NCBI GenBank assembly: GCA_903877385.1
Contig: CAIRDP010000030.1
Span: forward strand, 9,974 to 73,973
Direction: 5' to 3'
Source of the DNA: an uncultured Bacteroidales bacterium
GTDB lineage: Bacteria; Bacteroidota; Bacteroidia; Bacteroidales; FEN-979
Length of the DNA stretch: 64,000 nucleotides
Shown: piece by piece, positions 12,499 through 31,322 of the stretch
Position numbering within the stretch: the stretch's first letter is position 1
How the letters are laid out: the number at the start of each line of letters is the position of its first letter
The notes under the pieces: generated by a model
The model's input: only the letters and a program-made list of their open reading frames with translations
Told to the model about the DNA's origin: nothing
Database searches by the model: none
Made by a program: the position numbers and the translations under genes

Positions 12499-13108
12499 CT
12501 TTCAGTATCGTTAAGTCATCGGTTTGCTGCCTGAGGCGCATCACGAATATTCCCAGTATAAGCACGCTCACAAAGATATCCAGCAGTATCCCTATATTGA
12601 TCAGCATGGGGATCTCGCTCCCGATGGCCAGTGAAAGTAAAAGAACGGCGTTTTCAATAACCAGGAAACCGACGAGATGAGAGAAGATTTTCCTGTGCGA
12701 AATGATCATGAACAAGCCTGTATACACGGCAAAAAAAGAAACAATAAAGAACAGCAGGTTATAAGGGGTGGTGTTCATCGAAAAGGAAACCACTATGCTG
12801 AGCAGGAAGCCCAGGCTCACGAAAAGCAGGGAATAGAATGAAGGCAGGGCTTTATCATGGACGCGGGCTACGCCTGTCCTGCGGATGACGGTAAACAGCA
12901 GGTATGGTACAACGATAACTTTGAACAACAGGGTTTCAATAGCAACAAACAGGACTGTGGCAAGTGTGATCCTGTCGAGTTGCAGGAAAGATAAGCCGAA
13001 CAGCAGCAGCCCCTGCAGTCCCACAAGCCCCGCATAGATACTGAACCTCTCGGTAACGCTGAGGTAGATCAGGGTGATGGCAAACACTATGATGAGCATT
13101 GATGTCAT
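12491..13108 (-). CDS. small membrane subunit (HyfE / NuoK-like)
   Basis: 205 aa and entirely hydrophobic. Both position and size match HyfE of hydrogenase-4-type operons. Confidence 0.65.
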   Translation of the reverse strand: MTSMLIIVFAITLIYLSVTERFSIYAGLVGLQGLLLFGLSFLQLDRITLATVLFVAIETLLFKVIVVPYLLFTVIRRTGVARVHDKALPSFYSLLFVSLGFLLSIVVSFSMNTTPYNLLFFIVSFFAVYTGLFMIISHRKIFSHLVGFLVIENAVLLLSLAIGSEIPMLINIGILLDIFVSVLILGIFVMRLRQQTDDLTILKDD

Positions 13109-13109
13109 G

Positions 13110-14024
13110 TCAGCGGATGAGGTTGCGGGTTAATAACAGTACGAGGATGAATGCGATGAGGGCAACCGAACTGAGGGTAACGATGAACTGGGGGTTTTTG
13201 GCCAGTTTCTTCCTTGCGCGGAAGGATTCCATTAGCCCGATAGCAGCAGCAAACCCTGCCTGTACGAGGAGGAACAGCAGCACATTCGTGCCCAGCCATC
13301 CGCCCTTAACAGGTAAGATCAGGTTCGCGATAAGCCCTCCGTAAAGCACGAATTTTAGGTTTGTCCCGGTTTGGATGAGGGCAAGGTCCACCCCGCTGTA
13401 ATCGAGTATCATCACTTCGTGGACCATGGTTAGTTCGAGATGGGTCCTGGGGTCGTCTACAGGCATGCGGCTGTTTTCTATCATGGCGATCTGCAGCAGA
13501 AGGTAGGTTGCGATGGCCCCGGTGATGAGTGAAAATTCGCCTGCAAACTGGAAATGTGAAAAGATATCCTGCATCGAAAGATGGCCCGACAGCAGGGCAA
13601 GGGTTCCGAAGAGGATGAAAAAGGCAGGTTCGGTGAACATGGAATACAGGGCTTCGCGGTTGGCTCCCATGCCTTCAAAGCTGCTGCCGGTATCCATAGC
13701 GCCCAGGATGAACATGAGTTTTCCAAGGGCGAGCAGGTATGCAAAAAGAATGAAATCACCTTCAAAACCCAGTATCGACGGCATGCCCGGGAAGGGGAGG
13801 AGCATAAGAGCGCAAAGGACCGTGGCCAGGTAAACTGCAGGCGCAAGTCTGAAAATGAAGCTTGTTGTTGTGCTGAATACGCTGCTTTTCCTGAAAAGCA
13901 GGAGGATGTTCTTCCAGGCTTGAAGTATTCCCGGGCCTTTACGGCCACCGGCGATGCTTTTCACCCTGAGGATGATCCCCGGGAAAAAGATTGCGGATAC
14001 TATGGCCAGCAGGGCTCCTGTCAT
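13110..14024 (-). CDS. NuoH / HycD-like membrane subunit
   Basis: 304 aa and polytopic, with a NuoH-like motif (FAGEFSLITGAIATYLLLQIAMIENSRMPVDDPRTHLELTMVHEVMILDYSG). Confidence 0.78.
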   Translation of the reverse strand: MTGALLAIVSAIFFPGIILRVKSIAGGRKGPGILQAWKNILLLFRKSSVFSTTTSFIFRLAPAVYLATVLCALMLLPFPGMPSILGFEGDFILFAYLLALGKLMFILGAMDTGSSFEGMGANREALYSMFTEPAFFILFGTLALLSGHLSMQDIFSHFQFAGEFSLITGAIATYLLLQIAMIENSRMPVDDPRTHLELTMVHEVMILDYSGVDLALIQTGTNLKFVLYGGLIANLILPVKGGWLGTNVLLFLLVQAGFAAAIGLMESFRARKKLAKNPQFIVTLSSVALIAFILVLLLTRNLIR

Positions 14025-16045
14025 ATGAGTTTAAGGTATAGCAGTGCAAAGATCAAAAGGATGAAAATAAAAGCATACAATACGTAATGCCTGATATTGC
14101 CGGTTTGCAGCCTGGCCAGTTTTTTCAGTACATACCAGCTGAGATCGGTTAATTTTCCAATGCCCCTGCCAAAGATATCCGAAGTATGCTGATGCAGCGA
14201 GCGGGTACGGGGGAAGATGTCTTCGTTAGAAATGGTCCTGAATTCCTCTCGGTCCCTGAGCACAGGCTGGGCCAGTTCGGCGAGGTTTTCGGCAAACGAA
14301 GTCCCGGTGTATTGCTGCCTGGAAGTTGCGTGGGTATAGCCGCATCCCCAGGTTGGGCCATATTCGGGTTTCCTGTTTTTCAGCAGCAGTGTCCTTATGT
14401 AAAGTATAAGGGTCACAATTGAAATCAGGATGAGGCCGAAAAGGCTGATCCTGTTCAGGGAGGTTCCGTAGAAAACCCCTGAGGAAATCGGGCCCAGGCG
14501 GAAACGGGTTTCGACCAGGCTTGCAATGGGCGAAATCGCAGCCAGCGGCATCAGGCCGATGCCAAGAATCATAAATGCGATCAGAAGCTGGGGAAAGATC
14601 ATATCCCTTGTGATGGCCGAGGCTTGAATAGGAATGACTTTACGGGGAGTTCCGAGGAAGCTTATCCCGAAGGCCCGTGAAAAACTGAAGATTGCAAGCC
14701 CCCCGATCAGGGTCAGTGTGAGAATGACCACTAGGAACACTATGGAAAGGTATTCATTCCCGGCGCCCAATCCTTTGAAGAACCCTGTGTACAAAAGGAA
14801 CTCCGAAATAAATCCGTTCAGGGGGGGGAGAGCGCAGATGGCCGAGGAGCCAAGGAGAAACAAGCCTGCAGTGCGCGGAAGCGAGTGAACCAGCCCACCC
14901 AGTTCCTCGATGTTCCTGGTATGGGTTGCCCTGTAAACCGATCCGGAGGCATAAAAAAGAAGGGATTTGAACAGTGAATGGTTGAGCACATGCAGCAGGC
15001 TGCCGGTGAAGCCGAGGACTGCGAGCACGGGCTTGTGCAGGGCCAGGCCTATGCATCCAAGGCCCATTCCAAGGCCTATGATGCCGATGTTTTCGATGGT
15101 CGAGTAGGCAAGTATCTTTTTCAGGTCGGTCTGTACTATTGAAAATAAAATGCCGAGTAATCCTGTGAAGGCTGAGATGATGAGAATGACCAGCCCGATG
15201 GTGTACCAGTCGGACTGTACCGAAACAAGTACCCTGAATATCCCGTAAATACCCATTTTGATCATCACCCCCGACATAACTCCCGAAACATGGGATGGTG
15301 CGGCAGGATGGGCTTCGGGTAACCAGGTGTGAAACGGAATGAAGCCTGCCTTTACTGCAAACCCGGCAAAGAACAGCAGGAAAAGGCCGGTATTTGAATG
15401 ATTTGCAAAGTATGCAGGCAGGGCGTCAAAGCTCATCACCCCTGTACCGGCTTCGGTAAGAAGGAAAGCAAACAGTAGCAGCACAAAACCGATATGCATC
15501 TGTATAAGGTAATTGACGGCTGTTTTAAGGGTGGCCCGCTTTTCCGCTTCAAACAAGATCAGCATAAAGGATGAAACGGCCATCAGTTCCCAGGCGATAA
15601 GAAATGAAAGCCCGTCGCGGATTGTGAGCACGGCAAGCATGGAAAAGTGAAGCCAGGTATAACTGAAGTTATGCAAGGCAAGCTGGGCCGGGTTCTTGGT
15701 TTTGGCGTAGGCTTTGAGATAGCCCCTGGAGTAAAGAATTCCCGTAAGCACTGTAAAATTGGTCACCAGGATGAAAAATGCGCTCAGGGGGTCGAGGGTG
15801 AAACGGAGTTCCCCAAGGTATCCCCTGAAAACCCAGTTTGTTGAAGTCATGACTTCCCGTATCGGCGATACGGGTATGGCTGAGGCATCGGCAAGGGGAG
15901 AAAAAAACTGGAAGAATGCAGGGACAGAGGTTACCAGGATTACGAACAGGACCAGTGAAAGGGTATAGTAATAGCGTAACCTCCCGGGAACCACCAGGAT
16001 GAGAAATGAACCTAAAACCGCTGCAGGAATGAAAATCTGCTCCAT
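14021..16045 (-). CDS. antiporter-like membrane subunit (NuoL / HycC / HyfB-like)
   Basis: 674 aa and polytopic, with a Proton_antipo_M core (KAGFIPFHTWLPEAHPAAPSHVSGVMSGVMIKMGIYG, YSTIENIG). It is the first gene of the minus-strand operon. Confidence 0.82.
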   Translation of the reverse strand: MEQIFIPAAVLGSFLILVVPGRLRYYYTLSLVLFVILVTSVPAFFQFFSPLADASAIPVSPIREVMTSTNWVFRGYLGELRFTLDPLSAFFILVTNFTVLTGILYSRGYLKAYAKTKNPAQLALHNFSYTWLHFSMLAVLTIRDGLSFLIAWELMAVSSFMLILFEAEKRATLKTAVNYLIQMHIGFVLLLFAFLLTEAGTGVMSFDALPAYFANHSNTGLFLLFFAGFAVKAGFIPFHTWLPEAHPAAPSHVSGVMSGVMIKMGIYGIFRVLVSVQSDWYTIGLVILIISAFTGLLGILFSIVQTDLKKILAYSTIENIGIIGLGMGLGCIGLALHKPVLAVLGFTGSLLHVLNHSLFKSLLFYASGSVYRATHTRNIEELGGLVHSLPRTAGLFLLGSSAICALPPLNGFISEFLLYTGFFKGLGAGNEYLSIVFLVVILTLTLIGGLAIFSFSRAFGISFLGTPRKVIPIQASAITRDMIFPQLLIAFMILGIGLMPLAAISPIASLVETRFRLGPISSGVFYGTSLNRISLFGLILISIVTLILYIRTLLLKNRKPEYGPTWGCGYTHATSRQQYTGTSFAENLAELAQPVLRDREEFRTISNEDIFPRTRSLHQHTSDIFGRGIGKLTDLSWYVLKKLARLQTGNIRHYVLYAFIFILLIFALLYLKLI

Positions 16046-16165
16046 CGCGTGTGCAAAGTAAACGTAATCCCTGCCTCAAATGAGTACCCGCCGGCAGAAC
16101 TTATAAACAGGGAGGCGGTGAAAATTTTTCCACCCCCCTTAACGTTCATCCGCTGAGGCCTGAAA

Positions 16166-18100
16166 TTACCTTGCAGGGCCTGATAATTTAATGAATTTTG
16201 TGTTGAAGTTCAGTTTCCCCGACTCCAGCATCAGGAGGTAAATTCCGTTGATAAAGCCTCTAATTGGTAAAGGGTATTCCTGTTTATCGCCGGGGGTCGC
16301 ACTGACCTGCCCCGAGAACACCTTAATTCCCAGAGGGTTTAATACAGTTATATTTACAAGCCCGGATAATCCGGCCGGGAATTTTATTTTGAGGATATCG
16401 GTGGCTGGATTCGGGTAAACTGTAAAAAAGGGATTGGAAACGGGCGGGTCAATGCCCAGGTCGGGTCCCAGGAAAATATTGCGAACATACATGTCGTTGC
16501 CGCTGAAGGACCGGATCCCGCGAACCCTTATCAGCAGTTTGCCGGAACCGGATTCCCCTGAAAGGTCCACCTGGAATTTTTTCCATTGGCTTGTATCGGG
16601 CAGCCAGCCTATGAATTCAAACTCTCCGCAACCTCCGATGTCAATGTCGGTTGCCCATTTTTTAAGCACATTTCTCCAGCTTGTTCCGCAGTCGGTAGTC
16701 ACATCCACCCTGATTGTATCATGTGACATGTCCGGATTCCCGTTGCTGCACCAGGCAACTTCAAGGCCCAGTTTGAGCGAATTCATTTTGGAAACGTCGA
16801 ACAGCGGAAGAAAAAAGTCGTTGTATGTGCCTTCCTGCATGGTAAAAAGCCTTAGCTGCAAGGCCGAAATCAAATAAGATGAAGAAATGGTATTGTAGGA
16901 AATACGCTTCCAGGTATTTCCGTCTTTGTTGGGATTGTATACCGACCAGCCGGGGTAGGGCCAGCCCTGGGAGGTGAAATATTCATGTATGGGTGGTGCG
17001 ACGGGCGTGATGGCAATTGTAATCACATTTTTGCAGGCGGCTATTGTTGAGTTTATGATGGGTTTATTATTAGGCTTTAGCACTGCAGTGTAAATTGAAT
17101 GGCCTCCGTTTTCAAGGTAAACCGAATTAAAAGACACTTCCTGTTTCAGTCCCGGGGCGACCTTCCCTGACCATTTTACCGTATCGGCTTTGGATGTGGT
17201 ATCGGGATAACAAATAAGCAGGGCTTGTTTCAATGTATCCGTCCCCAGGTTCCATAAAGTGACTTTTGGATTTTTCAGACTGTCGCCGCATTGCAAAGGA
17301 GGGAAATTCAGGCTTGTGACAGGATCCAGGCCTGCATAATCGGGCAATGCCTGGGCTTGGGTAATGGCCGCCTGCCCGACTTTTTTTGAAACGTCATCCT
17401 GTACAAAGGCGATAACCCTGATCGTAGCCAGGTTGTGAAAATAATCAGGCATGAGTATTTTAAAGAGAAGGGTATCGGCTGTTCCTGAAACCCATGAACA
17501 GGGCAGCACGGCTCCCGAAGGATCAGGGACGAGTTTTTTACAAACCGTTTTAAAGATTTTTTCCCCGTTTGAGCCGGGAGGATAAATAAAGGCAATGGAA
17601 TCTTCAATAACAGCGATACGGGCCCTTAGTTTGCCCGCTTCAAAAGACTGTAAGGTATCGCTGCGGATGATCAGGCTGATGCTTATGGAATCGAGCCCGG
17701 GGCTGAAGGCATGTTGCAGCTTAAGGTGAAAATGTATGGGGACCTGGCTGAGTGAATCAACCAGCTGCTGCGTAATTTGTTCGTACATTTTATTTGTTCC
17801 GTCGGTATATGACATTGGTGCTGAAGACACGCCATAGTACTTCATTCGCTGGTTTATCTGCGCCGAATCGTCGTTATACATCGGATCATAACTGGGAATA
17901 TTAACCTGGTATTTCAGGGTGATGAGCTTGCCGGGATTAAGTTTTACAAGGCTGTCGATGTACCTGTTGCCGGCGGGACAACTTCCACAGGAGGCCCCGG
18001 TAAAATGCTCAATCAGGACCAGGCGGTGGTCCTGGGAAAATGCTGCTGATGCCCTGGCCAATATAAGAAAGACAATCAAAAAGAAATACCTGCTTTTCAT
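16166..18100 (-). CDS. secreted protein with a thioredoxin-like CxxC N-domain (Omp28-like) and a T9SS C-terminal sorting domain
   Basis: Signal peptide MKSRYFFLIVFLILARASAAFSQ, HFTGASCGSCPAGN, and a C-terminal FFTVYPNPATDILKIKF...GIYLLMLESGKLNFNTKFIKL that fits the Por/T9SS CTD pattern. Confidence 0.75.
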   Translation of the reverse strand: MKSRYFFLIVFLILARASAAFSQDHRLVLIEHFTGASCGSCPAGNRYIDSLVKLNPGKLITLKYQVNIPSYDPMYNDDSAQINQRMKYYGVSSAPMSYTDGTNKMYEQITQQLVDSLSQVPIHFHLKLQHAFSPGLDSISISLIIRSDTLQSFEAGKLRARIAVIEDSIAFIYPPGSNGEKIFKTVCKKLVPDPSGAVLPCSWVSGTADTLLFKILMPDYFHNLATIRVIAFVQDDVSKKVGQAAITQAQALPDYAGLDPVTSLNFPPLQCGDSLKNPKVTLWNLGTDTLKQALLICYPDTTSKADTVKWSGKVAPGLKQEVSFNSVYLENGGHSIYTAVLKPNNKPIINSTIAACKNVITIAITPVAPPIHEYFTSQGWPYPGWSVYNPNKDGNTWKRISYNTISSSYLISALQLRLFTMQEGTYNDFFLPLFDVSKMNSLKLGLEVAWCSNGNPDMSHDTIRVDVTTDCGTSWRNVLKKWATDIDIGGCGEFEFIGWLPDTSQWKKFQVDLSGESGSGKLLIRVRGIRSFSGNDMYVRNIFLGPDLGIDPPVSNPFFTVYPNPATDILKIKFPAGLSGLVNITVLNPLGIKVFSGQVSATPGDKQEYPLPIRGFINGIYLLMLESGKLNFNTKFIKLSGPAR

Positions 18101-18531
18101 GGAATTTGTTTTAAACCTTGTTTGACTTTAAAACTCAGGAAAATAATGAAACTCCCAACCCTATTACAAAGATACGTTACCATGAAGCGTTTTGCACGGG
18201 TCAGCATTAATAAAAGAGGCCGGTACCTGAATAAAACGCCCGCTTTGACAAGTATCTGCCATAATCAATTGAGCAAATCATATTGTTGATTTACACACAC
18301 TAATGGCCTTGACTATCCCAGGCTGATTTGAACGGTCCGATCTTGAGTTTTGATTGTTAACAGGTTAAGGTGGTCAATCAAAATCGGCGGCAGGTGGTAA
18401 GATGCTTGGTTCTTTATAAGTTTGAGTGGATGGATGGCATATAATTCAAACAAGTCCATATATTTGTTTCCAAATGGACAGCAAAAAAGTTGTTTTAGAG
18501 GTGGCCATAATAATGATAAAATGAAACTGAA

Positions 18532-19254
18532 ATGGAAAAGAGAACAAAAATCCGGATTTACATATTTGCAGTTATAGCAGTGGCATTGATTTTCACAAGC
18601 AGTTGCAAGAAGACGAATAACAATAACGATTCAACTCCAACACCTGGAACGGTAACAGACATTGACGGTAATATTTATCACACTGTAACGATTGGAACCC
18701 AGACTTGGATGGTTGAGAACCTTAAAACGACCAGGTACAACGATGGCACCTCTATACCGTTGGTAGCAGATAGTGCAACTTGGAGTAATTGGACCATTCC
18801 CGGATATTGCTGGTACAATAATGAAGACGCTACTTACAAAAATACTTTTGGCGCTTTGTATAACTGGTACGCAGTACAAACAGGAAAACTTGCTCCAACA
18901 GGCTGGCACGTGCCCACCGATGCCGAGTTGACAGTACTTACTACATATCTTGGAGGAGAAGCGATAGCAGGTGGAAAAATGAAATCTACCGGCACAATAG
19001 AGGCCGGCACGGGGCTATGGTATACACCCAATACCAACGCAACCAATTCAAGTGGGTTTACAGGCGTTCCGGCAGGCTACCGGTCCGGCAGTGGAGCATT
19101 CCTCTACATTAACTACCTCGGCTTATGGTGGAGTTCTTCTGAGGGCATTACAGGCAGTGCCTGGTTACGGGAACTATACTACATTGTGAGCAATGTACAC
19201 GGAGACTATGGTGGCAAGAGTTTCGGGTTATCTGTGCGTTGCGTTCGGGATTAG
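18532..19254 (+). CDS. FISUMP-domain lipoprotein (Fibrobacter succinogenes major paralogous domain)
   Basis: Lipobox-like IFTSSCKK, then TVTIGTQTWMVENLKTTRYNDGTSIP...FGALYNWYAV...GWHVPTDAEL...FGLSVRCVRD, which is the characteristic FISUMP signature. Confidence 0.85.
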   Translation: MEKRTKIRIYIFAVIAVALIFTSSCKKTNNNNDSTPTPGTVTDIDGNIYHTVTIGTQTWMVENLKTTRYNDGTSIPLVADSATWSNWTIPGYCWYNNEDATYKNTFGALYNWYAVQTGKLAPTGWHVPTDAELTVLTTYLGGEAIAGGKMKSTGTIEAGTGLWYTPNTNATNSSGFTGVPAGYRSGSGAFLYINYLGLWWSSSEGITGSAWLRELYYIVSNVHGDYGGKSFGLSVRCVRD

Positions 19255-20891: not shown

Positions 20892-23800
20892 ATGTCGATA
20901 ACCGAATTAGCGATAAAACGCCCGTCTTTCATTATCGTGATCTTTCTGGCCTTAGGGATGCTGGCTATTTTCGGGTATTTCCAGCTGGGGTATGAATTAC
21001 TGCCCAAGATCGATCAGCCTTATGTTACGGTAAAAACCCTGTATCCGGGGGCATCCCCCGGTGAAGTGGAGAACAATGTAACCCGGGTGATAGAGGATGC
21101 CCTTTCGGGTATAGAAAAAGTGAAAAACATAAGCTCAACTTCTTATGAAGGACTTTCGCTCATTGGCATAGAATTTTACAGGAATGCTACGATTAACATA
21201 GCCGTTCAGGATGTTCAGCGGAAGGTGAACGAGATCATCTCAACCCTGCCCAAAGAGGTGAAAACCCCTTCGCTGCTCACTTACTCGGTGAGCCAGATCC
21301 CTGTCCTCAGGCTTTCTCTTACTTCCAATCTTTCCCCGGCCAGGTTTTACACCCTGGTCGACGACCAGATCAAACCCAGGCTGTCGAGGGTACAGGGTGT
21401 CGGGAATATCACCATTAACGGCGGACTGAAACGGGAGATCAAGGTGAACATCGACGCCCAGAAGGTCAGGTCGTACGGACTTTCGATAAGCCAGGTGGCT
21501 AACTCAATCAATGCAGCCAACCTCGATTTTCCTACCGGCAAGCTTAAAGACCCCCTGCGGCAGTTCGTGGTAAGGGTAGCCGGGAAATTCACTTCCCTTG
21601 AAGAAATGAACAACCTGGTGGTCGGATATTCCAAAGAGGGAGGGGAGATCCGCCTTCGCGACATTGCCGAGATCCATGATGCAACCATTGATGCCACCCT
21701 CATCAGCAGGTTCAGCGGGATCAATGCACTTGGCCTGGAAATCCAGAAGCAGAACGACGCCAATATGGTGAAAGTCTGCGAGAACGTTCGCAGGGAATTG
21801 AAAGTGCTGGAAGCCGATTACAAGGGCATGAACCTTCATTTCGACATTGCCGACGACCAGAGCGTTTTCACTATGGCGGCAGCCCATGCAGTAATGGAAG
21901 ACCTGGTCCTTGCAATTATTCTTGTAGCTGCAGTGATGTTTCTTTTCCTGCATTCGGTGCGTACGGCGCTTATCGTCATGGTATCCATCCCATGTTCCCT
22001 TACCACTGCATTCGTGGTCATGTGGGTTGCCGGGATGTCTTTAAACCTTTTCACATTATTGGCCTTGTCGCTTGTGATCGGGATACTGGTCGACGACAGC
22101 ATCGTCGTTCTTGAGAACATCTACCATCATCTTGAAAAAGGAGAAGACAGGCTCACTGCATCCGTTAAAGGACGTACTGAGATCGGTTTTGCTGCAGTCT
22201 CAATTACATTTGTCGACATCGTGGTGTTTGTTCCCCTCGCCCTCACTACTGGACTCATAGGTGACATCATCCGCGGGTTTTCGATTATCATCCTTGTCTC
22301 AACCCTTACCAGCCTGATGGTTTCATTTACAGTAACACCCATCCTGGCATCGCGTTTTGCAAAACTCGAATCCATAGCTTCCGACAGCCTTCTTAACAGG
22401 TTTGGGAAGTTCTTTGAGCAGGGTTTCCGCTGGCTTACCGCGAAGTATGCAGCTATTCTCGGATGGAGCCTCAGGAATCCCTACCGGGTGTTATTTGTCG
22501 TCGCATCGGGCCTGGTGATAACGCTGATGATCCCTGCAGCCGGACTTATTGGTTTTGAATTCATGAAACAGACTGACCGCAGCCAGTTTTCGGTGGCTCT
22601 TGAATATGCTCCAGGAACAACCCTGGAAAGCAACAACCGGCAGACAAGGAAGATAGAAGAACTGATCACGACCCTGCCCGAGGTTACGAATATCCTGACC
22701 AACGTGGGTAAGGGAAGCGACGGGGTAAGCACCGACAACCAGACCGAGATCGTGGTTTCGCTATGTGACAAGAATAAGCGCAGCTTAACCACAGCCGAAC
22801 TGGGTTCCAGGGTCAAGGACCTTACCGCGAAAATCCCCGGGGTGAAAGTGTTTATAAACCAGATCGGTTTTGCAGGAGGGGCCAGCTCGGCTCCCGTGCA
22901 GGTGGAGATTACCGGCATCAATTATGATTCCATCATGAAGTCGGCCGACCTGGCTGCAAAAACCCTTATACTGACTCCCGGCGTTACTTACCTGAGATTT
23001 TCGGCAAGCAGGGGAAATCCTGAAACCCGGGTCGAGATCGACCGTCAGAAGATGGCAGCCCTAGGCCTGAGCGTGAGTGACGTAGGCTCGGCCCTGCAGG
23101 TTGCGCTCACCGGGAATAACGACTCGAAATACCGGGATGGCTCGAACCAGTTCGACATACGGGTTGCCCTGGATAAGTTTGACCGGACCAACCCCGACGA
23201 TATCTCTCATCTTTCGTTTATCAACAGTAAAAACAGGATCATCGAACTTCAGCAGTTTGCCAGCATCTACCAGTCCTCGGGACCAACTAAGCTGGAGCGC
23301 AAGAACCGTAATGCGCTTACCACGGTAAGCGCTTATACCGACGGATCTCCTGCGGGTTCCATTGTACAGGCATTTGCTGCAAGGCTTGGCAACAGCAAGG
23401 CAGGAGGAACCGTGATAGGGTTCGGAGGGGACCAGGAGGAGATGCTTACTTCCTTCCTCAGTCTCTTCATCGCACTTATAGCAGCCGTCATCTTTGTTTA
23501 CTTCATCATGGTGATACTGTACGATTCATTCGTGTATCCCCTGGTCGTGCTGTTTTCCATCCCGGTAGCCCTCATAGGGGCTATCCTTGCCCTGGCATTC
23601 ACACATAATACCATCAATGTGTTCTCTATTTTAGGCATTATCATGATGGTAGGCCTTGTTGCCAAGAATGCCATCCTTATCGTGGACCGAACGAACGAGA
23701 AAAGGGCTGAAGGAGAATCCATTTACGACGCACTTATTGATGCAGGTAAAATGCGTATACGCCCTATTTTCATGACCACCCTGGCGATGGTGTTCGGGAT

Positions 23801-26330
23801 GCTGCCCATAGCCACTGCCTCGGGAGCCGGCGCAGAATGGAAGAACGGCCTGGCCTGGGCCCTTATCGGGGGGCTTACCAGCTCGATGTTCCTCACCCTG
23901 GTCGTGGTTCCCATCATCTATGAGAAAATAGCACGTATCATGGAAAAACGCGGTAAAAGGAAAGGCCGCAGCCAGGCTCTTCCCGGGATTATCGTTTCGC
24001 TGTTCCTGGCAGTGTTATTTACCCTTGCCTTTTCTTCTCCTTCCAGGGCCCAGGAGCCTCTTGAATTTAACCTGCAGAAAGTCAGGGTTGCAATTGTATT
24101 TGACGGGCCAGCCAGGGTGAACGAATTGTACAGGGCGACCATGGAGAAAGAGATCAGAAGCCTGATGGCCGGGCAGGTGGATGTTGATTTTGTTCAACAA
24201 CCGGAACTGACCGGGAAATGGACCATGGAAAGCGTGAGAGCCTTGAACGACAGGCTGCTCAGCGATAAAAACGTTGACATCATCGTGTTGATGGGCGCTT
24301 TGGCAGCCCAGGACATTTGTCACAGGAAAAATTTTCAGAGACCTGTGATCGCGGCACCCGTGCTCGACCGTAAACTTCAGGGAATATCCTATGTACAGGG
24401 AACAAGCGGGATAAACAACCTGACCTATATCCAGCTGAAACCTGCCATTGAAAACGAATTCGCCGAGATGAAGAAGATTGTGGATTTCGATAATCTTTCC
24501 ATCCTGGTGAGCCGGGATTATGTAGATATTTTGAACCCCGAACACCGTGCCATCACCAATTTCGACACCATCAACGGGGTAAGGCTGAACCTGATACAGT
24601 GTGATACTTCGGCAGCTGAAACCCTCAGTGCAATTCCAAAACAAACAAATGCCGTATACCTCGATGCCATCATCAAAATGCCGGAGGAACAGTTTAAAAT
24701 CCTGGTCGACTCTCTGAATGCAAGGAAACTGCCCACCTTCGGCTTCGACCAGGTAGAAGTAGAAGCAGGAGTGCTGGCTTCACTTTATCCGCGGCTTGTC
24801 GACAGGCTTTCCAAACGTATTGCCCTTGACATACAGCAAATACTTTTGGGAGTAAATGCATCCACACTCCCCGTGGAACTGCTCACCGGGAAAGGGCTGT
24901 TCCTGAACCTCGGTACCTTTGCCAAACTGGGTCTGAAGATATTGTCGTGGGATGTTCTTACCGAAGCCACCATCGTGGACCTGCTGAGGCAGGACACATC
25001 CGTTCAGTTCATCCAGCTCAGGGAAATCATGAAGCTGGCGCTTGACAGCAACCAGGCGGTTGTTGCAAAGAAATTCGAGATCAGGGCAGGGGCTAAGAAC
25101 GTTGATATCGCAAGGTCGAGCCTGCTTCCCTACCTGGATGTATATGCCCAGGGCATGCTCAACGATTCCAAAAACTACCAGCCTCCTCAGATTGTCACCG
25201 CTAACGGCACACTCTCACAATCAATTTACTCGGAACCCGACTGGGCGAATTTTAATGCCAGTAAATCGAACCAGCAGGCCCTGGTCGAAGACATGTACAC
25301 CAGCGAACTCAACATAGGAAACCAAACGGCCGATGCTTATCTCAATATACTGGAAAGCCGGCATAATTTTCTGCTTCTGCTGAATAACCTGGCGATCAGC
25401 CGGTCGAACCTTGAGATATCCAGAATGAAAAAGGAATCGGGTTCGGTGGGAGAAAACGAGGTATATCGCTGGCAGATAGAAGTTGCCAAATCAAAGAAAG
25501 ATGTGATCAATTCATATTCCAACATGACCCAGGCGGTTTACAAACTGCTCGAGCTCATCCATGTAAGGTATCTTGTTTCCTATAACCTGGCCGATGTAGA
25601 GCTGGCGACATCAGGACTGCTGATTTCCAACCCTGAATTTTACAAAATCCTTGAGGATCCCATCCTCCTCGATAAGCTCAGCAAATTCCTGGTCATAGAG
25701 GGAACCATGAACTCACCCCTGATTCAGCAGTATGATTTCCTGATTACAGCCCAGGAAAGGCTTGCGAGATCGGCCAACATCTCCAGGTTTATTCCGAACA
25801 CCAGCGCGTCGGGAAGTTATACAAACCGGCTGTATCAGACCACTACTTCCGACTGGCCTTTCCCCCCGCCCAACGACACCTGGAACATACAGGCAAAAGT
25901 CGAGATCCCGCTGTTTACCGGTTTGAAGAATAATGCGGCTATGCAGAAAGCCAGGCTCACACTGGCTCAGCGGAAGAGCGAAAAGCAATCCCAGCTGGAT
26001 AAACTGGAATCGGTCATCCGCAGTAACCTCACCACATTAATGTCGGATTACCTGAGCCATAAGCAATGGCTGCTTGCCGAGACCGCAAGCCAGAAGAACC
26101 TTGACCTGGTCACAAATCAGTACCTGCTCGGGAAAAAAAGCATTCTCGACGTACTCGACGCCCAGCAGCAGTTCATCGTCAGCAGCATGTCGCGCAACGG
26201 TTCGTATTATACCTTTCTCAGGGATTATTTCGCATTGCAGCAATCCCTGGGAAAGTTTGATTACATGACGACCCCGGCCGAAAAACAGGATTATCTTTCA
26301 AGGCTGAAGGTGTTCATGGCAAAGCCGTGA
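20892..26330 (+). CDS. fusion ORF: RND (AcrB/HAE1-like) permease + signal-peptide-like TM + ABC_sub_bind-like periplasmic domain + TolC-like outer membrane factor
   Basis: aa 1-~1016 carry ACR_tran motifs (MSITELAIKRPSFIIV..., GILVDDSIVVLENI, VGLVAKNAILIVD). aa 1017-1054 read MEKRGKRKGRSQALPGIIVSLFLAVLFTLAFSSPSRAQ, an n-h-c signal-peptide layout. aa ~1060-1370 resemble PF04392 (DIIVLMGALAAQ, RPVIAAPVLD, KLPTFGFDQVEVEAGVLASL). aa ~1375-1812 are OMF-like (LALDSNQAVVAKKFEIRAGAKNVDIARSSLLPYLDVYAQ). Confidence 0.75.
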   Translation: MSITELAIKRPSFIIVIFLALGMLAIFGYFQLGYELLPKIDQPYVTVKTLYPGASPGEVENNVTRVIEDALSGIEKVKNISSTSYEGLSLIGIEFYRNATINIAVQDVQRKVNEIISTLPKEVKTPSLLTYSVSQIPVLRLSLTSNLSPARFYTLVDDQIKPRLSRVQGVGNITINGGLKREIKVNIDAQKVRSYGLSISQVANSINAANLDFPTGKLKDPLRQFVVRVAGKFTSLEEMNNLVVGYSKEGGEIRLRDIAEIHDATIDATLISRFSGINALGLEIQKQNDANMVKVCENVRRELKVLEADYKGMNLHFDIADDQSVFTMAAAHAVMEDLVLAIILVAAVMFLFLHSVRTALIVMVSIPCSLTTAFVVMWVAGMSLNLFTLLALSLVIGILVDDSIVVLENIYHHLEKGEDRLTASVKGRTEIGFAAVSITFVDIVVFVPLALTTGLIGDIIRGFSIIILVSTLTSLMVSFTVTPILASRFAKLESIASDSLLNRFGKFFEQGFRWLTAKYAAILGWSLRNPYRVLFVVASGLVITLMIPAAGLIGFEFMKQTDRSQFSVALEYAPGTTLESNNRQTRKIEELITTLPEVTNILTNVGKGSDGVSTDNQTEIVVSLCDKNKRSLTTAELGSRVKDLTAKIPGVKVFINQIGFAGGASSAPVQVEITGINYDSIMKSADLAAKTLILTPGVTYLRFSASRGNPETRVEIDRQKMAALGLSVSDVGSALQVALTGNNDSKYRDGSNQFDIRVALDKFDRTNPDDISHLSFINSKNRIIELQQFASIYQSSGPTKLERKNRNALTTVSAYTDGSPAGSIVQAFAARLGNSKAGGTVIGFGGDQEEMLTSFLSLFIALIAAVIFVYFIMVILYDSFVYPLVVLFSIPVALIGAILALAFTHNTINVFSILGIIMMVGLVAKNAILIVDRTNEKRAEGESIYDALIDAGKMRIRPIFMTTLAMVFGMLPIATASGAGAEWKNGLAWALIGGLTSSMFLTLVVVPIIYEKIARIMEKRGKRKGRSQALPGIIVSLFLAVLFTLAFSSPSRAQEPLEFNLQKVRVAIVFDGPARVNELYRATMEKEIRSLMAGQVDVDFVQQPELTGKWTMESVRALNDRLLSDKNVDIIVLMGALAAQDICHRKNFQRPVIAAPVLDRKLQGISYVQGTSGINNLTYIQLKPAIENEFAEMKKIVDFDNLSILVSRDYVDILNPEHRAITNFDTINGVRLNLIQCDTSAAETLSAIPKQTNAVYLDAIIKMPEEQFKILVDSLNARKLPTFGFDQVEVEAGVLASLYPRLVDRLSKRIALDIQQILLGVNASTLPVELLTGKGLFLNLGTFAKLGLKILSWDVLTEATIVDLLRQDTSVQFIQLREIMKLALDSNQAVVAKKFEIRAGAKNVDIARSSLLPYLDVYAQGMLNDSKNYQPPQIVTANGTLSQSIYSEPDWANFNASKSNQQALVEDMYTSELNIGNQTADAYLNILESRHNFLLLLNNLAISRSNLEISRMKKESGSVGENEVYRWQIEVAKSKKDVINSYSNMTQAVYKLLELIHVRYLVSYNLADVELATSGLLISNPEFYKILEDPILLDKLSKFLVIEGTMNSPLIQQYDFLITAQERLARSANISRFIPNTSASGSYTNRLYQTTTSDWPFPPPNDTWNIQAKVEIPLFTGLKNNAAMQKARLTLAQRKSEKQSQLDKLESVIRSNLTTLMSDYLSHKQWLLAETASQKNLDLVTNQYLLGKKSILDVLDAQQQFIVSSMSRNGSYYTFLRDYFALQQSLGKFDYMTTPAEKQDYLSRLKVFMAKP

Positions 26331-26568: not shown

Positions 26569-27249
26569 ATGATGGAAAAGCTGGTACAAAAATTTTATGA
26601 GAAATATGCCTCTGTCCAAACTGAAATTGTACGTGATTTTGTCAATGAAATTGATTGGTCCAACAGGGTCATCGGGATTAAAGGAAGCAGAGGTGTTGGA
26701 AAGACAACCCTGGTTTTACAATACATCAAACAGAACTTTGCTCCCGACAGCAGCGTTCTTTACATTAGCCTGGATAATTTATACTTTTCCGACAACAAGC
26801 TTTACGATCTGGCCGATGTGTTTCATAAAAAAGGGGGTAAGTTACTGGTGATAGACGAAGTACATAAATATGCAAACTGGACAACCGAGCTAAAGAATAT
26901 TTACGATGACTTATCCGGTTTGAAAATAATTTTTTCCGGATCATCTTTATTGCACCTGAGGCAAACTAAAGCTGATTTAAGCCGCAGGGCAGTGATGTAT
27001 GAGATGCCGGGACTATCCTTCAGAGAATATTTGCATTTTCAGACCAATATAAAATTTCCAATTTTCAGCCTGGAAGAGATCCTGAACAATCATATTCAGT
27101 TATCGGTTAGGATCATTAAAAAAATAAAACCGCTTGCATACTTCGGCGATTATTTAAACTATGGATATTACCCGTTTTTCAAAGAAAGTCTGACATCCTT
27201 TCACCAAAAGCTCAGCGAAATATTACTTACAGTGCTTGAAGTTGACATT
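26569..27249 (+). pseudogene. AAA-ATPase (AAA_14 + DUF4143-type) gene, 5' fragment (codons 1-227), disrupted by prophage insertion
   Basis: Walker A GSRGVGKTT and Walker B LLVIDEVHKY. The native reading frame ends at ...LTVLEVDI (codon boundary at 27249). The remaining 15 codons of the track ORF (YNSQNKLYKFSKRSV*) are read from phage-end DNA. Confidence 0.85.
27245..27249. repeat. target-site duplication, left copy (ACATT)
   Basis: ACATT lies directly before the prophage end, and an identical pentamer lies directly after the other end at 61391-61395. The flanking bases differ, so the duplication is at most 5 bp. Confidence 0.8.
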
Positions 27250-27330
27250 TATAATTCGCAAAACAAATTGTATAAATTTTCAAAACGAAGTGTATAAATA
27301 ATTCGCATTGCGAAATTAACCATTATACGC
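27250..27330. promoter_or_regulatory. prophage terminal region (Mu right-end equivalent) with repeated putative transposase-binding sites
   Basis: Direct repeats cgCAAAACAAATTGTATAAA (27257-27276) and ttCAAAACGAAGTGTATAAA (27279-27298) start 22 bp apart. An inverted partial copy (cattatacgc) lies at 27321-27330. Confidence 0.6.
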
Positions 27331-27443: not shown

Positions 27444-28259
27444 TTATCTGCCGGGCTTACCTTTTTGTATAGGGTAATTGGCTGTCAATACCTCGATTTT
27501 ATTTGATCTGACTGCCTTCTTTGAGGCACATAAAGGCATTTTAAAAGCCAGCTGGGACCAGCCATGCTTCTTGGCATATTGAGTGATAATGTCCTGAGGG
27601 TAATTGCTTAATAAAAACTTTCCTTTGATGTTTGATAGCCTTATCAAGAGCTGCTCAAGGTTGTCCATCGTATAACCCTTGTAATGGCCCAAATTGGTCC
27701 CAGGATAAGGTGGGTCGATATAATGAAAGGTATCCGGTGTATCATATAGCCTGATTACGTCAAGGGCGTCACGGCACTCTATTTGCGTTAATTCAATACG
27801 CTCCTGAAGCTGATCAGTAAACTGCCTTTTTTTATTCATAACTTTCCTTGCAATACTGGATTTGCTTTTATCAAACCCCCAGGATCCTGAGAGCTGACTT
27901 CCGAAGGATTGAGTGGATAATACCCATAAGGCCCATGCCCTGGTTACCGGATCGTGGAGTATTGGCTGCTGATAAATCTCCCATGCCTGCTTATGAGTCT
28001 TACGACTGTGCAATGTGATTTTAACGACTTTTTGAAGGGCTTTAAATTGTGTTTTAAGAACAACGTAAAAGTTGATCAGCTCATCATTCATGTCATTGAT
28101 CACTTCAACCTTTGAAGGGGCCTTTAACCAGTAAATGGCGGCACCTCCACAGAAGGGTTCACAATAAACAGTGTGTTTGGGAATTAAAGGCAGAATATGC
28201 CTCGACATTTGTTGTTTGCCCCCATAGTAAGAAATGGGGGTCTTAATAGTGTCAATCAT
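27444..28259 (-). CDS. dam: DNA adenine methyltransferase (Dam / D12 class N6-MTase)
   Basis: YYGGKQQ...YCEPFCGGAAIY (AdoMet motif I) and IDPPYPGT (catalytic DPPY motif IV). It is the last gene before the prophage end. Confidence 0.88.
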   Translation of the reverse strand: MIDTIKTPISYYGGKQQMSRHILPLIPKHTVYCEPFCGGAAIYWLKAPSKVEVINDMNDELINFYVVLKTQFKALQKVVKITLHSRKTHKQAWEIYQQPILHDPVTRAWALWVLSTQSFGSQLSGSWGFDKSKSSIARKVMNKKRQFTDQLQERIELTQIECRDALDVIRLYDTPDTFHYIDPPYPGTNLGHYKGYTMDNLEQLLIRLSNIKGKFLLSNYPQDIITQYAKKHGWSQLAFKMPLCASKKAVRSNKIEVLTANYPIQKGKPGR

Positions 28260-28322: not shown

Positions 28323-31322
28323 TTAAGTCAGTTTTAAAACAGCATAACCATATAATGGTGATGCTGTAGCTACAGTTACCCTTAAATTATCCGATGCAAC
28401 TGTGGCGTTAGAAATAGTGACATTACTGGATTTTTCAACCACAGTGATATCCATGCCCACATATTTGTTAGGAATGGCCACATTATCAATCATTACGCCG
28501 TTATAGTCAAGATAAATATAAACGGCCTTACCGACCTCTATCATGTTGCAGGATAATCGTCCTGTGGGATTGTTCTCAACATCGGAGAAGATTCTGAATG
28601 CCACAGCCTGATAGGTAGTCCCCGCGGCAATATCACCCAGAGTGTCATCAATGCCACAAGGATAGCTCTTTCGTGATGTATAATAATACCAGGCTCTCGA
28701 AACAAGATCTTTTCTTCCGACACCTATACCCTTATCTGTAACGAATCCTGACATAAAAGCGTGTTTCCTTGTGCCATCTCCTAATGCAAGAAACTCAATA
28801 GCCCTGTCCGGTGGCGAGTTTGGATTTTCCCAATAAGCCGAATCAATATTAATGCTTCCAGCAGGGGCAGATGTTAAATCAATAAGTGTTCTGAGATCAT
28901 AAGTTGTACCCGAAACGGTTACAGGTAACGCTTTCGGCATATAAACGAGCATTTTTGTCAATGGAGAAACTGTGTTCATCGGAGCATTTTGAATAAAACC
29001 CATATATCCAATGTCGACTTTTTGCAGGGCCGTCCAGTCATGCAGAACAAGCATGGCTCCGTTATTTTGCATCCTGAAGACAATATTACACTGAACACAA
29101 CCATCTCCTGCATTAATTGCCGGCGAAGGATCAGTACCACGATTTGCAATCAGATAATCAATTGCCGATGCCGGGTTGACAATTTCATAATTCTCCTTAA
29201 TGTCTACATGATCACAGTAGTAAGTCCCATCAGCCGTCTCTTCAGCGATTCCATCCAAGAGCACCTTACAGGTCCTGTTTTTTATTGCAGGCGTTATCTG
29301 GGCTTGTTCCTGGGCACTAAAGGTGATAGTTCCTGTATGGGTTGCACCTGCTGAATGGGTTAAGCTCGATCCTGAAAGCAAGTCAAATGCCCATATATCA
29401 GAAGCTCCAATATTTTCCGACAACACCCATAACATACTTGAACTGACAATTCTAAGGATGTAAAACTTCCTGTTGGCACTATCAGTCCATTCGCTTCCGA
29501 CATCAACCGCTGTTTTCCCATGAGATGATGCTGTTATTAGGATGCCCGAACTGCACCCATGATTACCACCGATGTATGTGCCGTTCATACTTGTGGGAGT
29601 GCCATCATCGGCCCCGGATTGCAAGGTTATTGTCGGAGCACCTATATTATTTGAGCCTTTAATGACAAGGTGAGATGAGAAATTTACGATGTTGTTATTA
29701 AATGGTGTGGAATTAAAGCAGGTGAAATCGGTGCGTAAATCATAAGTGTCATTATATGGAGTAAACACATGGACATATGGAGTAGCGATGATCACAGTGG
29801 TTTTCTTAATGCCGATTTTAGCCTCATTCGCTATTACCATTGCCTGCTGTGCAACGTCGACTGCATCACTTATTGAAGGTGGATATTGCATTACGTTTAA
29901 ACCGTCAGGATGGATGTTTGAACATATGATTTCATCCTCCCACACAAAAGTAAAATTAGCGTAATCCAAATCGTTTCCATACAGTAATGCCACCTGGGGA
30001 TAATTCATGTAGAACCTTGGCGTTGTAGATGTAAACGCTCCATCATAAACAACATTCTCAACCGTGAATGCAACGAAGCTCCAGCCGTCCTGCTTATCAA
30101 GGCAAACAGCTTTAAAATCTCCTGCCATGTAAGAAGCTACATTAAATGTCCCATTCTGCTCATTTCCGATTGCCGCAATTACAGTGTTTATTGCAATTAG
30201 GATTGTGGCATATATACTTCCGTCAAAAAAATAAAACATCATGTTTGGACTACCTGCAAAAACCGTTGCCAGCTGAGTGTCATTAAGCCAGAATCCCCAA
30301 CTCCATTTTGTGGGTTTAGGAGAGGTTGGGAAAACATAACCTACGGTTCCATCCCATTCAACAAATGTACTTCCGGAATTAGAGATGGCCGTTAACCGGT
30401 TCATATATGGAAGTTGTGCTGAACACGGAGAGGTATTAGTTACATGAGTACCGGTTAGATTTTGACCACCTGTTGTCCATGTAAAACTTGGATATAGTGT
30501 TCCATTTCCTTTATTTGCATTTAAAGGAAGCTTTGTTGAAACTATCTTTTTCAGAATTTCATCAAGGGCAATTGCCTCCGCCTTCGCCAAGGCCAGTGTT
30601 TCGGCTTTAATAGTCGGAATGTCCCCTGTTGAAACGGCATCGTCTAATTTTTGGGTAAGTGATTTTTTTAATAAACGTGTATAGGGTACCTGGGTGGATG
30701 AAACGGCCCCTAATTCGAGTTGGAATAAAGTTTTGAAGAGGGAAAAAGATTCCGTAGGATTTGCCATTGAGTTTATACCTATAAAGGCACAGCCAGACGG
30801 AGTAGTAAATGTAATCGTTCTATAATCGCCATCGTACCCTCCCAGATTAGCCATGGAAGAATTATAAAATCTGATATTACCATATGTAGCATCTGTGCCA
30901 AATTTTGTCAGAGTGTATTCTGTATTTGGTAATACGGCTTGGTAACCACTACAATTAAAGACACTTCCAGCCCCTAAATTAAGTGCTCCATTTGAGTTAT
31001 TAAAGTAAGCACCCTCAATACATTCATCCGGATTAAACTTGTTTTTCCCAATCTCAGTAAATGCCGACAGTTGCATGTAATCAACTAATGAGATCCCGGT
31101 CTCATATTTACTCCAAGCGGACCCATTCCAGATTAGAAATGCCACTTGACCTGACACCACCAAACCATTAAAGTGAGTGTATGTTCCTGCCTCACCCGCG
31201 AACCAGTACTCGGGATCATTCGGTGAACCAGGGTTTGTACTGGTTAAAGCGACGCCCTTGAATTGATTGGATTCAAATAAGACCTGGCCGCCGAGGTTTA
31301 TGGTTTTTGATGTGCCTGACAT
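28323..31322 (-). CDS. large tail fibre / receptor-binding protein (999 aa)
   Basis: The call rests on size and position distal to the baseplate genes. The sequence is Gly/Ser/Thr/Asn-rich and beta-rich, and I recognise no enzymatic motif. Confidence 0.5.
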   Translation of the reverse strand: MSGTSKTINLGGQVLFESNQFKGVALTSTNPGSPNDPEYWFAGEAGTYTHFNGLVVSGQVAFLIWNGSAWSKYETGISLVDYMQLSAFTEIGKNKFNPDECIEGAYFNNSNGALNLGAGSVFNCSGYQAVLPNTEYTLTKFGTDATYGNIRFYNSSMANLGGYDGDYRTITFTTPSGCAFIGINSMANPTESFSLFKTLFQLELGAVSSTQVPYTRLLKKSLTQKLDDAVSTGDIPTIKAETLALAKAEAIALDEILKKIVSTKLPLNANKGNGTLYPSFTWTTGGQNLTGTHVTNTSPCSAQLPYMNRLTAISNSGSTFVEWDGTVGYVFPTSPKPTKWSWGFWLNDTQLATVFAGSPNMMFYFFDGSIYATILIAINTVIAAIGNEQNGTFNVASYMAGDFKAVCLDKQDGWSFVAFTVENVVYDGAFTSTTPRFYMNYPQVALLYGNDLDYANFTFVWEDEIICSNIHPDGLNVMQYPPSISDAVDVAQQAMVIANEAKIGIKKTTVIIATPYVHVFTPYNDTYDLRTDFTCFNSTPFNNNIVNFSSHLVIKGSNNIGAPTITLQSGADDGTPTSMNGTYIGGNHGCSSGILITASSHGKTAVDVGSEWTDSANRKFYILRIVSSSMLWVLSENIGASDIWAFDLLSGSSLTHSAGATHTGTITFSAQEQAQITPAIKNRTCKVLLDGIAEETADGTYYCDHVDIKENYEIVNPASAIDYLIANRGTDPSPAINAGDGCVQCNIVFRMQNNGAMLVLHDWTALQKVDIGYMGFIQNAPMNTVSPLTKMLVYMPKALPVTVSGTTYDLRTLIDLTSAPAGSINIDSAYWENPNSPPDRAIEFLALGDGTRKHAFMSGFVTDKGIGVGRKDLVSRAWYYYTSRKSYPCGIDDTLGDIAAGTTYQAVAFRIFSDVENNPTGRLSCNMIEVGKAVYIYLDYNGVMIDNVAIPNKYVGMDITVVEKSSNVTISNATVASDNLRVTVATASPLYGYAVLKLT

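Follow-up and report, generated by a model that had tools for sequence, protein, structure and literature searches.

This account concerns a putative efflux-pump locus of an uncultured Bacteroidales bacterium (GTDB lineage FEN-979). The locus lies in a stretch of 64,000 nucleotides (nt) from contig CAIRDP010000030.1 of assembly GCA_903877385.1 (positions 9,974 to 73,973), which is referred to below as the window. Two genes on the forward strand make up the locus: a gene for a periplasmic adaptor and, starting 10 nt beyond its end, an open reading frame (ORF) of 1812 codons. This ORF encodes in succession an inner-membrane permease of the resistance-nodulation-division (RND) type, a domain resembling periplasmic binding proteins (PBP) and a TolC-like outer-membrane factor (OMF). 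An initial annotation, made from the letters of the window, had claimed that no stop codon separates these parts, and this is borne out by the ORF list, the translation and Pfam. The latter matches PF00873 (ACR_tran) to amino acids (aa) 4-1013, PF04392 (ABC_sub_bind) to aa 1121-1358 and PF02321 (OEP) to two stretches from aa 1377. Taken together, the adaptor gene and the fused ORF probably specify a tripartite RND efflux pump whose permease and outer-membrane duct are first made as one polyprotein (Table 1).

Table 1. Features of the fused pump gene and the adjoining adaptor gene. Positions are those of the window; here and in the text a slash within a peptide marks the bond predicted to be cut. 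TM, transmembrane segment.
Feature	Position (nt)	Strand	Basis
Periplasmic adaptor (membrane fusion protein, MFP), 349 aa	19832..20881	+	Pfam HlyD_D23 and HlyD_3
Fused RND, signal segment, PBP-like and OMF gene	20892..26330	+	One 1812-codon ORF (ORF list, translation)
RND permease, aa 1-1009	20892..23918	+	ACR_tran match; 12 hydrophobic segments; Asp401-Asp402 pair in TM4; Lys924 in TM10
Basic cytoplasmic loop, aa 1010-1028 (YEKIARIMEKRGKRKGRSQ)	23919..23975	+	Charge +7/-1 after YEK; contains in-frame ATG 23940
Hydrophobic h-region, the "13th TM", aa 1029-1047 (ALPGIIVSLFLAVLFTLAF)	23976..24032	+	Hydropathy scan
c-region and predicted signal peptidase I site SSPSRA/Q, A1053/Q1054	24033..24053	+	Cleavage motif
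PBP-like domain (PF04392 / class I solute-binding-protein fold), aa 1054 to ~1365	24051..24986	+	Pfam, profile, AlphaFold2/Foldseek
Two-repeat TolC-type OMF, complete, aa 1376-1812	25017..26327	+	PF02321, AlphaFold2, Foldseek

The permease part is complete, its ACR_tran match covering profile positions 2-1020 of 1021 (E 5e-248). A hydropathy scan places TM1 at residues 12-30, TM2-6 within 338-481, TM7 at 535-553 and TM8-12 within 858-1009, which reproduces the 12 segments and two large periplasmic loops of the RND family. The residues of the proton relay are present in the motifs "GILVDDSIVV" (D401-D402, TM4) and "GLVAKNAIL" (K924, TM10), and are presumably the equivalents of AcrB D407, D408 and K940. 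After TM12, the scan finds exactly one further hydrophobic segment, at 1029-1047, and none beyond it. Because the RND part starts and ends in the cytoplasm, this thirteenth segment must run from the inside to the outside.

The junction peptide, PIIYEKIARIMEKRGKRKGRSQALPGIIVSLFLAVLFTLAFSSPSRAQEPLEF, is identical to that read in the initial annotation, and the ATG at 23940 is in frame and corresponds to Met1017. The signal-like stretch and the SRA/Q site described there also stand. The length given for the released protein (758 aa) does not: M1017 to A1053 are 37 aa, Q1054 starts at nt 24051, with nt 24053 as the final base of its codon, and the part from Q1054 to P1812 measures 759 aa. An OMF is expected to carry a Sec signal peptide ahead of the mature protein. 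One is indeed found here, but it is internal to the ORF (aa 1017-1053).

Relatives of the fused gene were sought with the C-terminal 796 aa as the query, and several were found that carry PF00873, PF04392 and PF02321 together. The junction is in frame on five metagenome contigs (L001, L002, L003, L007 and L008). A scan in which one genome stood for each GTDB species, with patterns biased to the fused clade and therefore uninformative on close split relatives, added 19 junction-covering loci (L010-L028), each with a single open frame from the RND part to the OMF stop codon. Eighteen of these are full-length ORFs of 1810-1825 aa in metagenome-assembled genomes (MAGs) of species representatives; the remaining one, L011, is cut at the start of its contig and reads through the junction. 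With the window included, 25 independent sequences span the junction, and all of them keep it in frame. A stop codon or frameshift near 23930-23945, named in the initial annotation as the mark of an ordinary two-gene operon, does not occur at the junction of any relative. Most of the species-representative loci are labelled Bacteroidales, Prolixibacteraceae or Bacteroidota, and the few with other bin labels are probably mis-binned.

Among the fused sequences, identity to the PBP-OMF part of the window falls to ~53%, and the linkers at the fusion differ in length by multiples of three. The mean pairwise identity is 0.85 for the RND part, 0.44 for the linker, 0.66 for the PBP domain and 0.67 for the OMF. 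In two contigs the frame is broken away from the junction: 2 nt are deleted from the PBP domain of L003 relative to the window (~5230-5240), and the RND part of L001 is interrupted near 8001-8053, where two gene calls overlap. These are one-off errors or decay, and the junction is unaffected in both. As for the orthologues, whose state the initial annotation had left to be established, they are fused in the close clade and encoded by separate genes in distant relatives; the welding to the RND part appears, so far, confined to an uncultured Bacteroidales clade. Contig L001 also carries a second, conventional RND system directly downstream of the fused operon (12152-18806), with an adaptor, a 1121-aa RND protein, a 458-aa OEP gene on the opposite strand (convergent) and a TetR regulator; a further TetR gene lies ahead of the fused operon.

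The linker between the permease and the PBP domain drifts in both sequence and length (27 to ~60 residues), while its layout is retained. In each of the 25 sequences, a segment of net positive charge (+3 to +10) leads into 12-25 uncharged residues, and a short polar region ending in a small-x-small motif follows. With a fixed anchor placed 17 residues ahead of the Asp in "DG", the motif of the first PBP strand, 22 of the 25 sequences have Ala at position -1, 24 have Ser, Ala, Val, Thr or Ile at -3, and 23 have Gln at +1. Locus L010 has an insertion, with its A/Q site upstream of that insertion, which brings the total with Ala/Gln to 24 of 25. The site in the window reads S1051-R-A1053/Q1054. 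In L007, the hydrophobic core measures only ~11 aa, a usual length in signal peptides but insufficient for a stable membrane helix. Fast drift combined with retained n-, h- and c-region features and a fixed cleavage motif is, as judged from the sequences, the evolution of a signal peptide and unlike that of packed TM helices. Glutamine at +1 is a signature of Bacteroidetes signal peptidase I (SPI) substrates, known as the "Q-rule", and in P. gingivalis more than 60% of the predicted SPI substrates carry it and have it cyclised to pyroglutamate (PMC5837995). The window segment has the full set of marks of such a substrate: the three regions, small residues at -3 and -1, and Gln at +1.

The OMF at the end of the ORF matches PF02321 in two tandem OEP repeats (E 9e-33); TIGR01844 also matches in two stretches, below its cutoff. 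An AlphaFold2 model of aa 1055-1812, computed as a monomer (mean pLDDT 80.9, pTM 0.67), places a domain of alternating beta and alpha elements at model residues 9-308, followed by the canonical order of TolC: H1/H2, two strands, a 68-residue helix, H4 and the equatorial region, then the repeat. The modelled protomer accordingly has the four strands, long helices and equatorial domain that define the TolC fold. Foldseek lists TolC (1EK9), OprM (1WP1), CusC (3PIK) and CmeC among its matches, with E ~1e-17 to 1e-18 and target TM-scores of 0.64-0.77. As a member of the TolC/OEP family, the OMF would be expected to form a homotrimeric channel onto which the adaptor docks. The adaptor itself is ordinary: it is anchored by an N-terminal TM, lacks a lipobox Cys and carries a short alpha-hairpin (~aa 100-165), and its best solved relatives are 4l8j, MacA, AcrA and MexA. 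The idea that the adaptor lacks a hairpin and that the PBP domain replaces the tip-to-tip contact was ruled out, the alignment with 4L8J, MacA and AcrA running through the hairpin. With such an adaptor, the PBP domain is not obviously a substitute for the contact between adaptor and duct.

The middle domain scores 30.8 bits against PF04392 (cutoff 25.9). Its profile finds the binding proteins 3LKV (E 4e-12) and 3LFT (E 3e-6), and Foldseek places the model next to 3LFT, the Trp-bound form (target TM-score 0.76), CD0873 (0.73) and 3LKV (0.72), with E ~1e-10. The possibility raised in the initial annotation, that the middle region is merely an extended N-terminus of the OMF, is ruled out by this fold and by the profile homology to PF04392 proteins. 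The aromatic-amino-acid binders of that family share conserved ligand contacts, namely a Thr, an Ala-x-Thr, an Asp and an Asn (PMC9382623, PMC6816091). These contacts, located in the 3LKV chain as T78, A97, T99, D122 and N203, align to A1136, P1156, L1158, L1182 and K1262 of the window, and thus all five are replaced. Across the family, the same positions hold A/V/S/L/P, P/M/A/I, L/I/V, L/Q/S and K/R/A/D. A role as a sensor of aromatic amino acids, like TrpX or CD0873, was rejected on these grounds. The PBP-OMF family has invariant residues of its own, among them Q1163, G1170, S1172, G1173 and Y1179, and the residues named fall within the loop that corresponds to the ligand loop in the binding proteins. 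The neighbours of the domain in the window include no gene for an ABC permease or ATPase, and standalone relatives adjoin adaptor and RND genes. Since the amino-acid site is lost while the domain is as conserved as the OMF, the domain is probably a functional collar with another ligand or partner.

The PBP-OMF combination is not special to this locus. An exhaustive profile search over 1.84 billion cluster representatives was made, of which the best 150 matches were considered. All of these are full-length; 149 are not fused to an RND protein and mostly measure 750-880 aa, and the RND-fused form is a single cluster among them. There are therefore at least 149 standalone PBP-OMF clusters at 50% identity. 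Repeating the search for homologous proteins with a broad profile returned the same 14 proteins. Members that bear a name are all listed as "TolC family protein", and a single IMG name mentions both domains. Their sources include Desulfatiferula olefinivorans (WP_459925530.1) and MAGs of Thermodesulfobacteriota, Acidiferrobacterales, Gemmatimonadales and Hydrogenedentota. Where the window has its internal signal peptide, the standalone homologues have an ordinary N-terminal one. In all five genomic contexts that were read, an adaptor gene adjoins; the contigs long enough to show it (L004, L006 and L035) also have an RND gene.

In many full-length members (P0019, P0073, P0150, P0096 and P0042), PF04392 goes undetected or stays below the gathering score (22-24 bits versus 25.9). 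Such weak matches probably hide the architecture in domain databases, where the proteins are listed as plain OEP proteins. The initial annotation had regarded the whole architecture as undescribed. This holds for the weld to the RND part, which is limited to the Bacteroidales clade, but not for an OMF with an N-terminal PBP domain as a peculiarity of this locus, given the large standalone family in the databases. A limited full-text literature search found no paper on the PBP-OMF architecture or on a natural RND-OMF fusion. Two members of the family carry additional domains. In a partial sequence from a Gemmatimonadales MAG (P0096; DASZPT010000133.1, L037:1-3574), a kinase is fused onto the PBP-OMF module in one ORF, with a Ser/Thr protein kinase at aa 84-346, a TM or signal-like segment ending in AAEA/Q, a PBP-like domain and the OMF. 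An adaptor gene comes immediately after it; the case stands alone, and an assembly error is possible. The NCBI-derived P0042 (881 aa) has an extra bacterial SH3 domain (SH3_3, aa 40-90) N-terminal to its PBP domain.

The split relative L006 offers a view of how the fusion may have arisen. Its genes follow the order adaptor, RND, PBP-OMF. The ATG of the OMF gene (5796) precedes the end of the RND stop codon (5807-5809), giving an overlap of 14 nt in a different frame, and the OMF begins with an ordinary signal peptide, MSLINRGTTSGYGVVGCLALLCFLPGLCLA/Q. The public gene call for this OMF (P0010, start 5910) is too late and misses the signal peptide. A small frame-restoring indel in an overlap of this kind would produce the arrangement of the window and leave the old start codon behind as an in-frame Met. 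Most likely, therefore, the fusion descends from an adaptor–RND–PBP-OMF operon whose last two genes overlapped and were joined in this way. The ATG at 23940 (Met1017) is then probably what remains of the start codon that the OMF gene once had.

Beyond this anatomy, the mechanistic steps are all inferred from the sequence. TM12 would end in the cytoplasm, and the basic loop would remain inside, in line with the positive-inside rule. The thirteenth segment would insert from the inside to the outside and, serving as an internal signal peptide, send the C-terminal 759 residues out by the Sec route. SPI would then cut at SRA/Q and free the PBP-OMF protein, whose new N-terminal Gln would probably be cyclised, as in most Bacteroidetes SPI substrates, while the RND protein would retain the signal segment as an extra C-terminal helix. 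The released PBP-OMF would join a normal tripartite pump with the adjacent adaptor, and three PBP domains would surround the duct at the equatorial level, where the N-terminus of the OMF emerges. Expression from a single ORF would guarantee that pump and duct are synthesised in a 1:1 ratio. A polyprotein that comprises a pump and its dedicated duct and is split by SPI is the reading favoured overall, with fair though not high confidence. Cleavage is preferred because of the conserved -3/-1/+1 motif and the short core of L007.

Some points weigh against this scheme. The call of the cleavage site comes from a rule-based motif tally, and the h-region of the window (19 aa) is long enough for a stable anchor. 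To our knowledge, an internal signal peptide that is cleaved after a 12-TM protein is rare in bacteria. All fused sequences come from MAGs or metagenomes, and the placement of the PBP domains on an assembled trimer is derived from the monomer model with its pTM of 0.67. Every sequence also has an in-frame ATG or GTG just ahead of the basic stretch, where separate initiation of the OMF is possible.

One rival explanation is that a lost stop codon, a frameshift or a chimeric assembly has joined two ordinary genes in the window only, and frame breaks do occur elsewhere in the gene in the related contigs L003 and L001. Such an artefact or pseudogene can be dismissed as practically impossible: 25 of 25 independent assemblies, which stem from different studies, keep the frame across the junction, the linker lengths differ by whole codons, and the permease, the PBP domain and the OMF are all under purifying selection. 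Of the two readings left by the initial annotation, a fusion released by signal peptidase or a nested gene starting at 23940, the former gains from the conserved cleavage motif and the latter is reduced to a possible extra source of OMF. If the gene were nested, the OMF would be produced mainly or only from this ATG as an ordinary pre-protein, and the read-through fusion would be a tolerated by-product. In 24 of the 25 sequences, an in-frame ATG does follow the YEK motif at a distance of 1-5 codons, L022 having a GTG in its place, and Met1017 opens a textbook signal peptide. The OMF of L006 starts at the same place, overlapping the end of the RND gene. Internal starts are also hard to exclude by sequence in Bacteroidota, in which a Shine-Dalgarno sequence is not required. 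In the absence of a stop codon, however, every ribosome that finishes the RND part continues into the PBP-OMF part. The fusion product is therefore unavoidable and made at least as often as the RND protein, and internal initiation could add OMF to it but not replace it. Moreover, the position of the start codon is not conserved, being codon 15 after "SMFLTL" in one subclade and codon 18 or 19 in the other, with GTG in L022 only, and the n-region counted from the ATG of subclade B would be unusually long (19-33 aa). No stop codon has been regained in 25 lineages, even though their PBP-OMF identity falls to ~53%. The conservation of frame across linker indels was dropped as a means of telling the two readings apart, because the start lies upstream of the indels and both predict in-frame changes. 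On balance, the sequences make the polyprotein the better supported of the two and quite likely the correct one, and a nested gene unlikely.

A third alternative accepts the fusion and denies the cut. The product would then be a two-membrane protein, anchored by the RND part and the thirteenth segment in the inner membrane and by the TolC barrel in the outer membrane, with the PBP domain as a periplasmic tether. The ORF is continuous in all lineages, and in most sequences the h-region has 17-25 uncharged residues, enough for a stable TM helix. Without cleavage, however, the conserved Ala at -1, the small residue at -3 and the Gln at +1 would be purposeless, and the ~11-aa core of L007 cannot span a bilayer. 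In the model, the spacers are short, with only ~8 residues between the cleavage site and the first PBP strand and ~12 between the PBP domain and OMF helix 1. In AcrAB-TolC, the N-terminus of the OMF lies at the equatorial domain, some 100 Angstrom or more away from the inner membrane, and an uncut chain with such short spacers is unlikely to reside in both membranes. The standalone homologues, too, work as free OMFs. An uncleaved protein is accordingly very improbable. Cleavage of the polyprotein by SPI remains the preferred reading. A more far-reaching version takes the polyprotein as an obligate assembly pathway, in which the duct is made only as the tail of its pump, is freed at the site of insertion and stays dedicated to it, while the PBP collar senses a ligand or partner and thereby gates or positions the duct. 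This version is tentative and, on present evidence, doubtful.

Tripartite pumps are central to the drug and toxin resistance of Gram-negative bacteria, and the textbook picture is one of three separate proteins with a bare TolC-type duct. If true, a pump-duct polyprotein would be a rare case of a single bacterial gene that supplies integral proteins to both membranes by means of an internal signal peptide. The enforced 1:1 synthesis would make it a natural system for studying how a duct finds its pump. The duct, moreover, belongs to a large, phylogenetically broad and seemingly unstudied family with a conserved domain of the binding-protein fold. If a ligand or partner of this domain were found, it might bring to light a further layer of regulation or anchoring on exit ducts, in the manner of the YbjP-TolC partnership discovered recently. 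Should the version with an obligate pathway and a sensing collar hold, the family would form a large class of "sensor-decorated" TolC proteins that has gone unrecognised.

The surroundings of the pump gene in the window include a Fib_succ_major protein and an AAA_14 protein, and a protein with the tail of the type IX secretion system (Por_Secre_tail) is encoded nearby, which is consistent with Bacteroidota. Downstream lie a short AAA_14 ATPase ORF (26569-27297, forward strand), a D12-class N6-adenine DNA methyltransferase gene (27444-28259, reverse strand) and a 999-aa ORF with no Pfam match (28323-31322, reverse strand). Together, these three ORFs may form a restriction-modification or defence islet.

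Compared with AcrAB-TolC and MexAB-OprM, the window system has the same parts: a short-hairpin adaptor, a 12-TM HAE-type RND protein with the proton-relay residues and a two-repeat OMF of the TolC fold, encoded by adjacent, co-oriented genes. It differs in that the RND protein and the OMF form one ORF with an internal signal peptide, and in that the OMF, which is not lipidated, has an extra N-terminal domain of ~310 aa with the PBP fold. The available part of a Chem Rev review of tripartite systems (PMC8277102) contains no fused RND-OMF arrangement. The standalone "TolC family protein" PBP-OMFs are closer in design, sharing the full-length two-part architecture, the invariant PBP motifs, a signal peptide and operons with adaptor and RND genes. 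Unlike the window protein, they are encoded by separate genes (750-880 aa), and their identity to its C-terminal part is 23-33%. A search by names and in the literature found none that has been characterised. The PF04392 binders VC_1101 (3LKV, Phe), SP1069/TrpX (3LFT, Trp) and CD0873 (6HNI, Tyr) have in common with the window domain the class I fold (target TM-score 0.72-0.77), profile homology (E 4e-12) and the motifs KxP.F and E.G.(I/L)AS. The window domain differs from them by the loss of the five ligand contacts, by the lack of adjoining ABC genes and by its fusion to an OMF, the binders being free or lipid-anchored.

For the proposed processing, the nearest parallels lie outside efflux. 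The FbcH precursor of Bradyrhizobium, which contains cytochromes b and c1, is a polyprotein that is split at an internal signal peptide. In the glycoprotein precursors of bunyaviruses, signal peptidase likewise cuts at internal signal sequences (PMC7926653). The window ORF has the layout that characterises such polyproteins, one reading frame that runs from a membrane protein through an internal signal peptide into an exported protein. As in these precursors, the membrane part is polytopic, the exported part comes after the internal signal sequence, and the products would work in one complex. In contrast to them, the products of the window ORF would reach two different membranes, and their cleavage is predicted. 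For the PBP collar, a possible counterpart is YbjP, a lipoprotein partner of TolC in E. coli, which attaches to the outer face of the duct in a 3:3 ratio, at a level between the equatorial domain and the outer membrane (PDB 9TG4, 9V52; PMC13082787). YbjP is a separate, unrelated lipoprotein and does not have the PBP fold. The resemblance is one of position: in both cases, an accessory globular domain would sit in roughly the same region of the duct, the one to which the PBP domain appears to be tethered.

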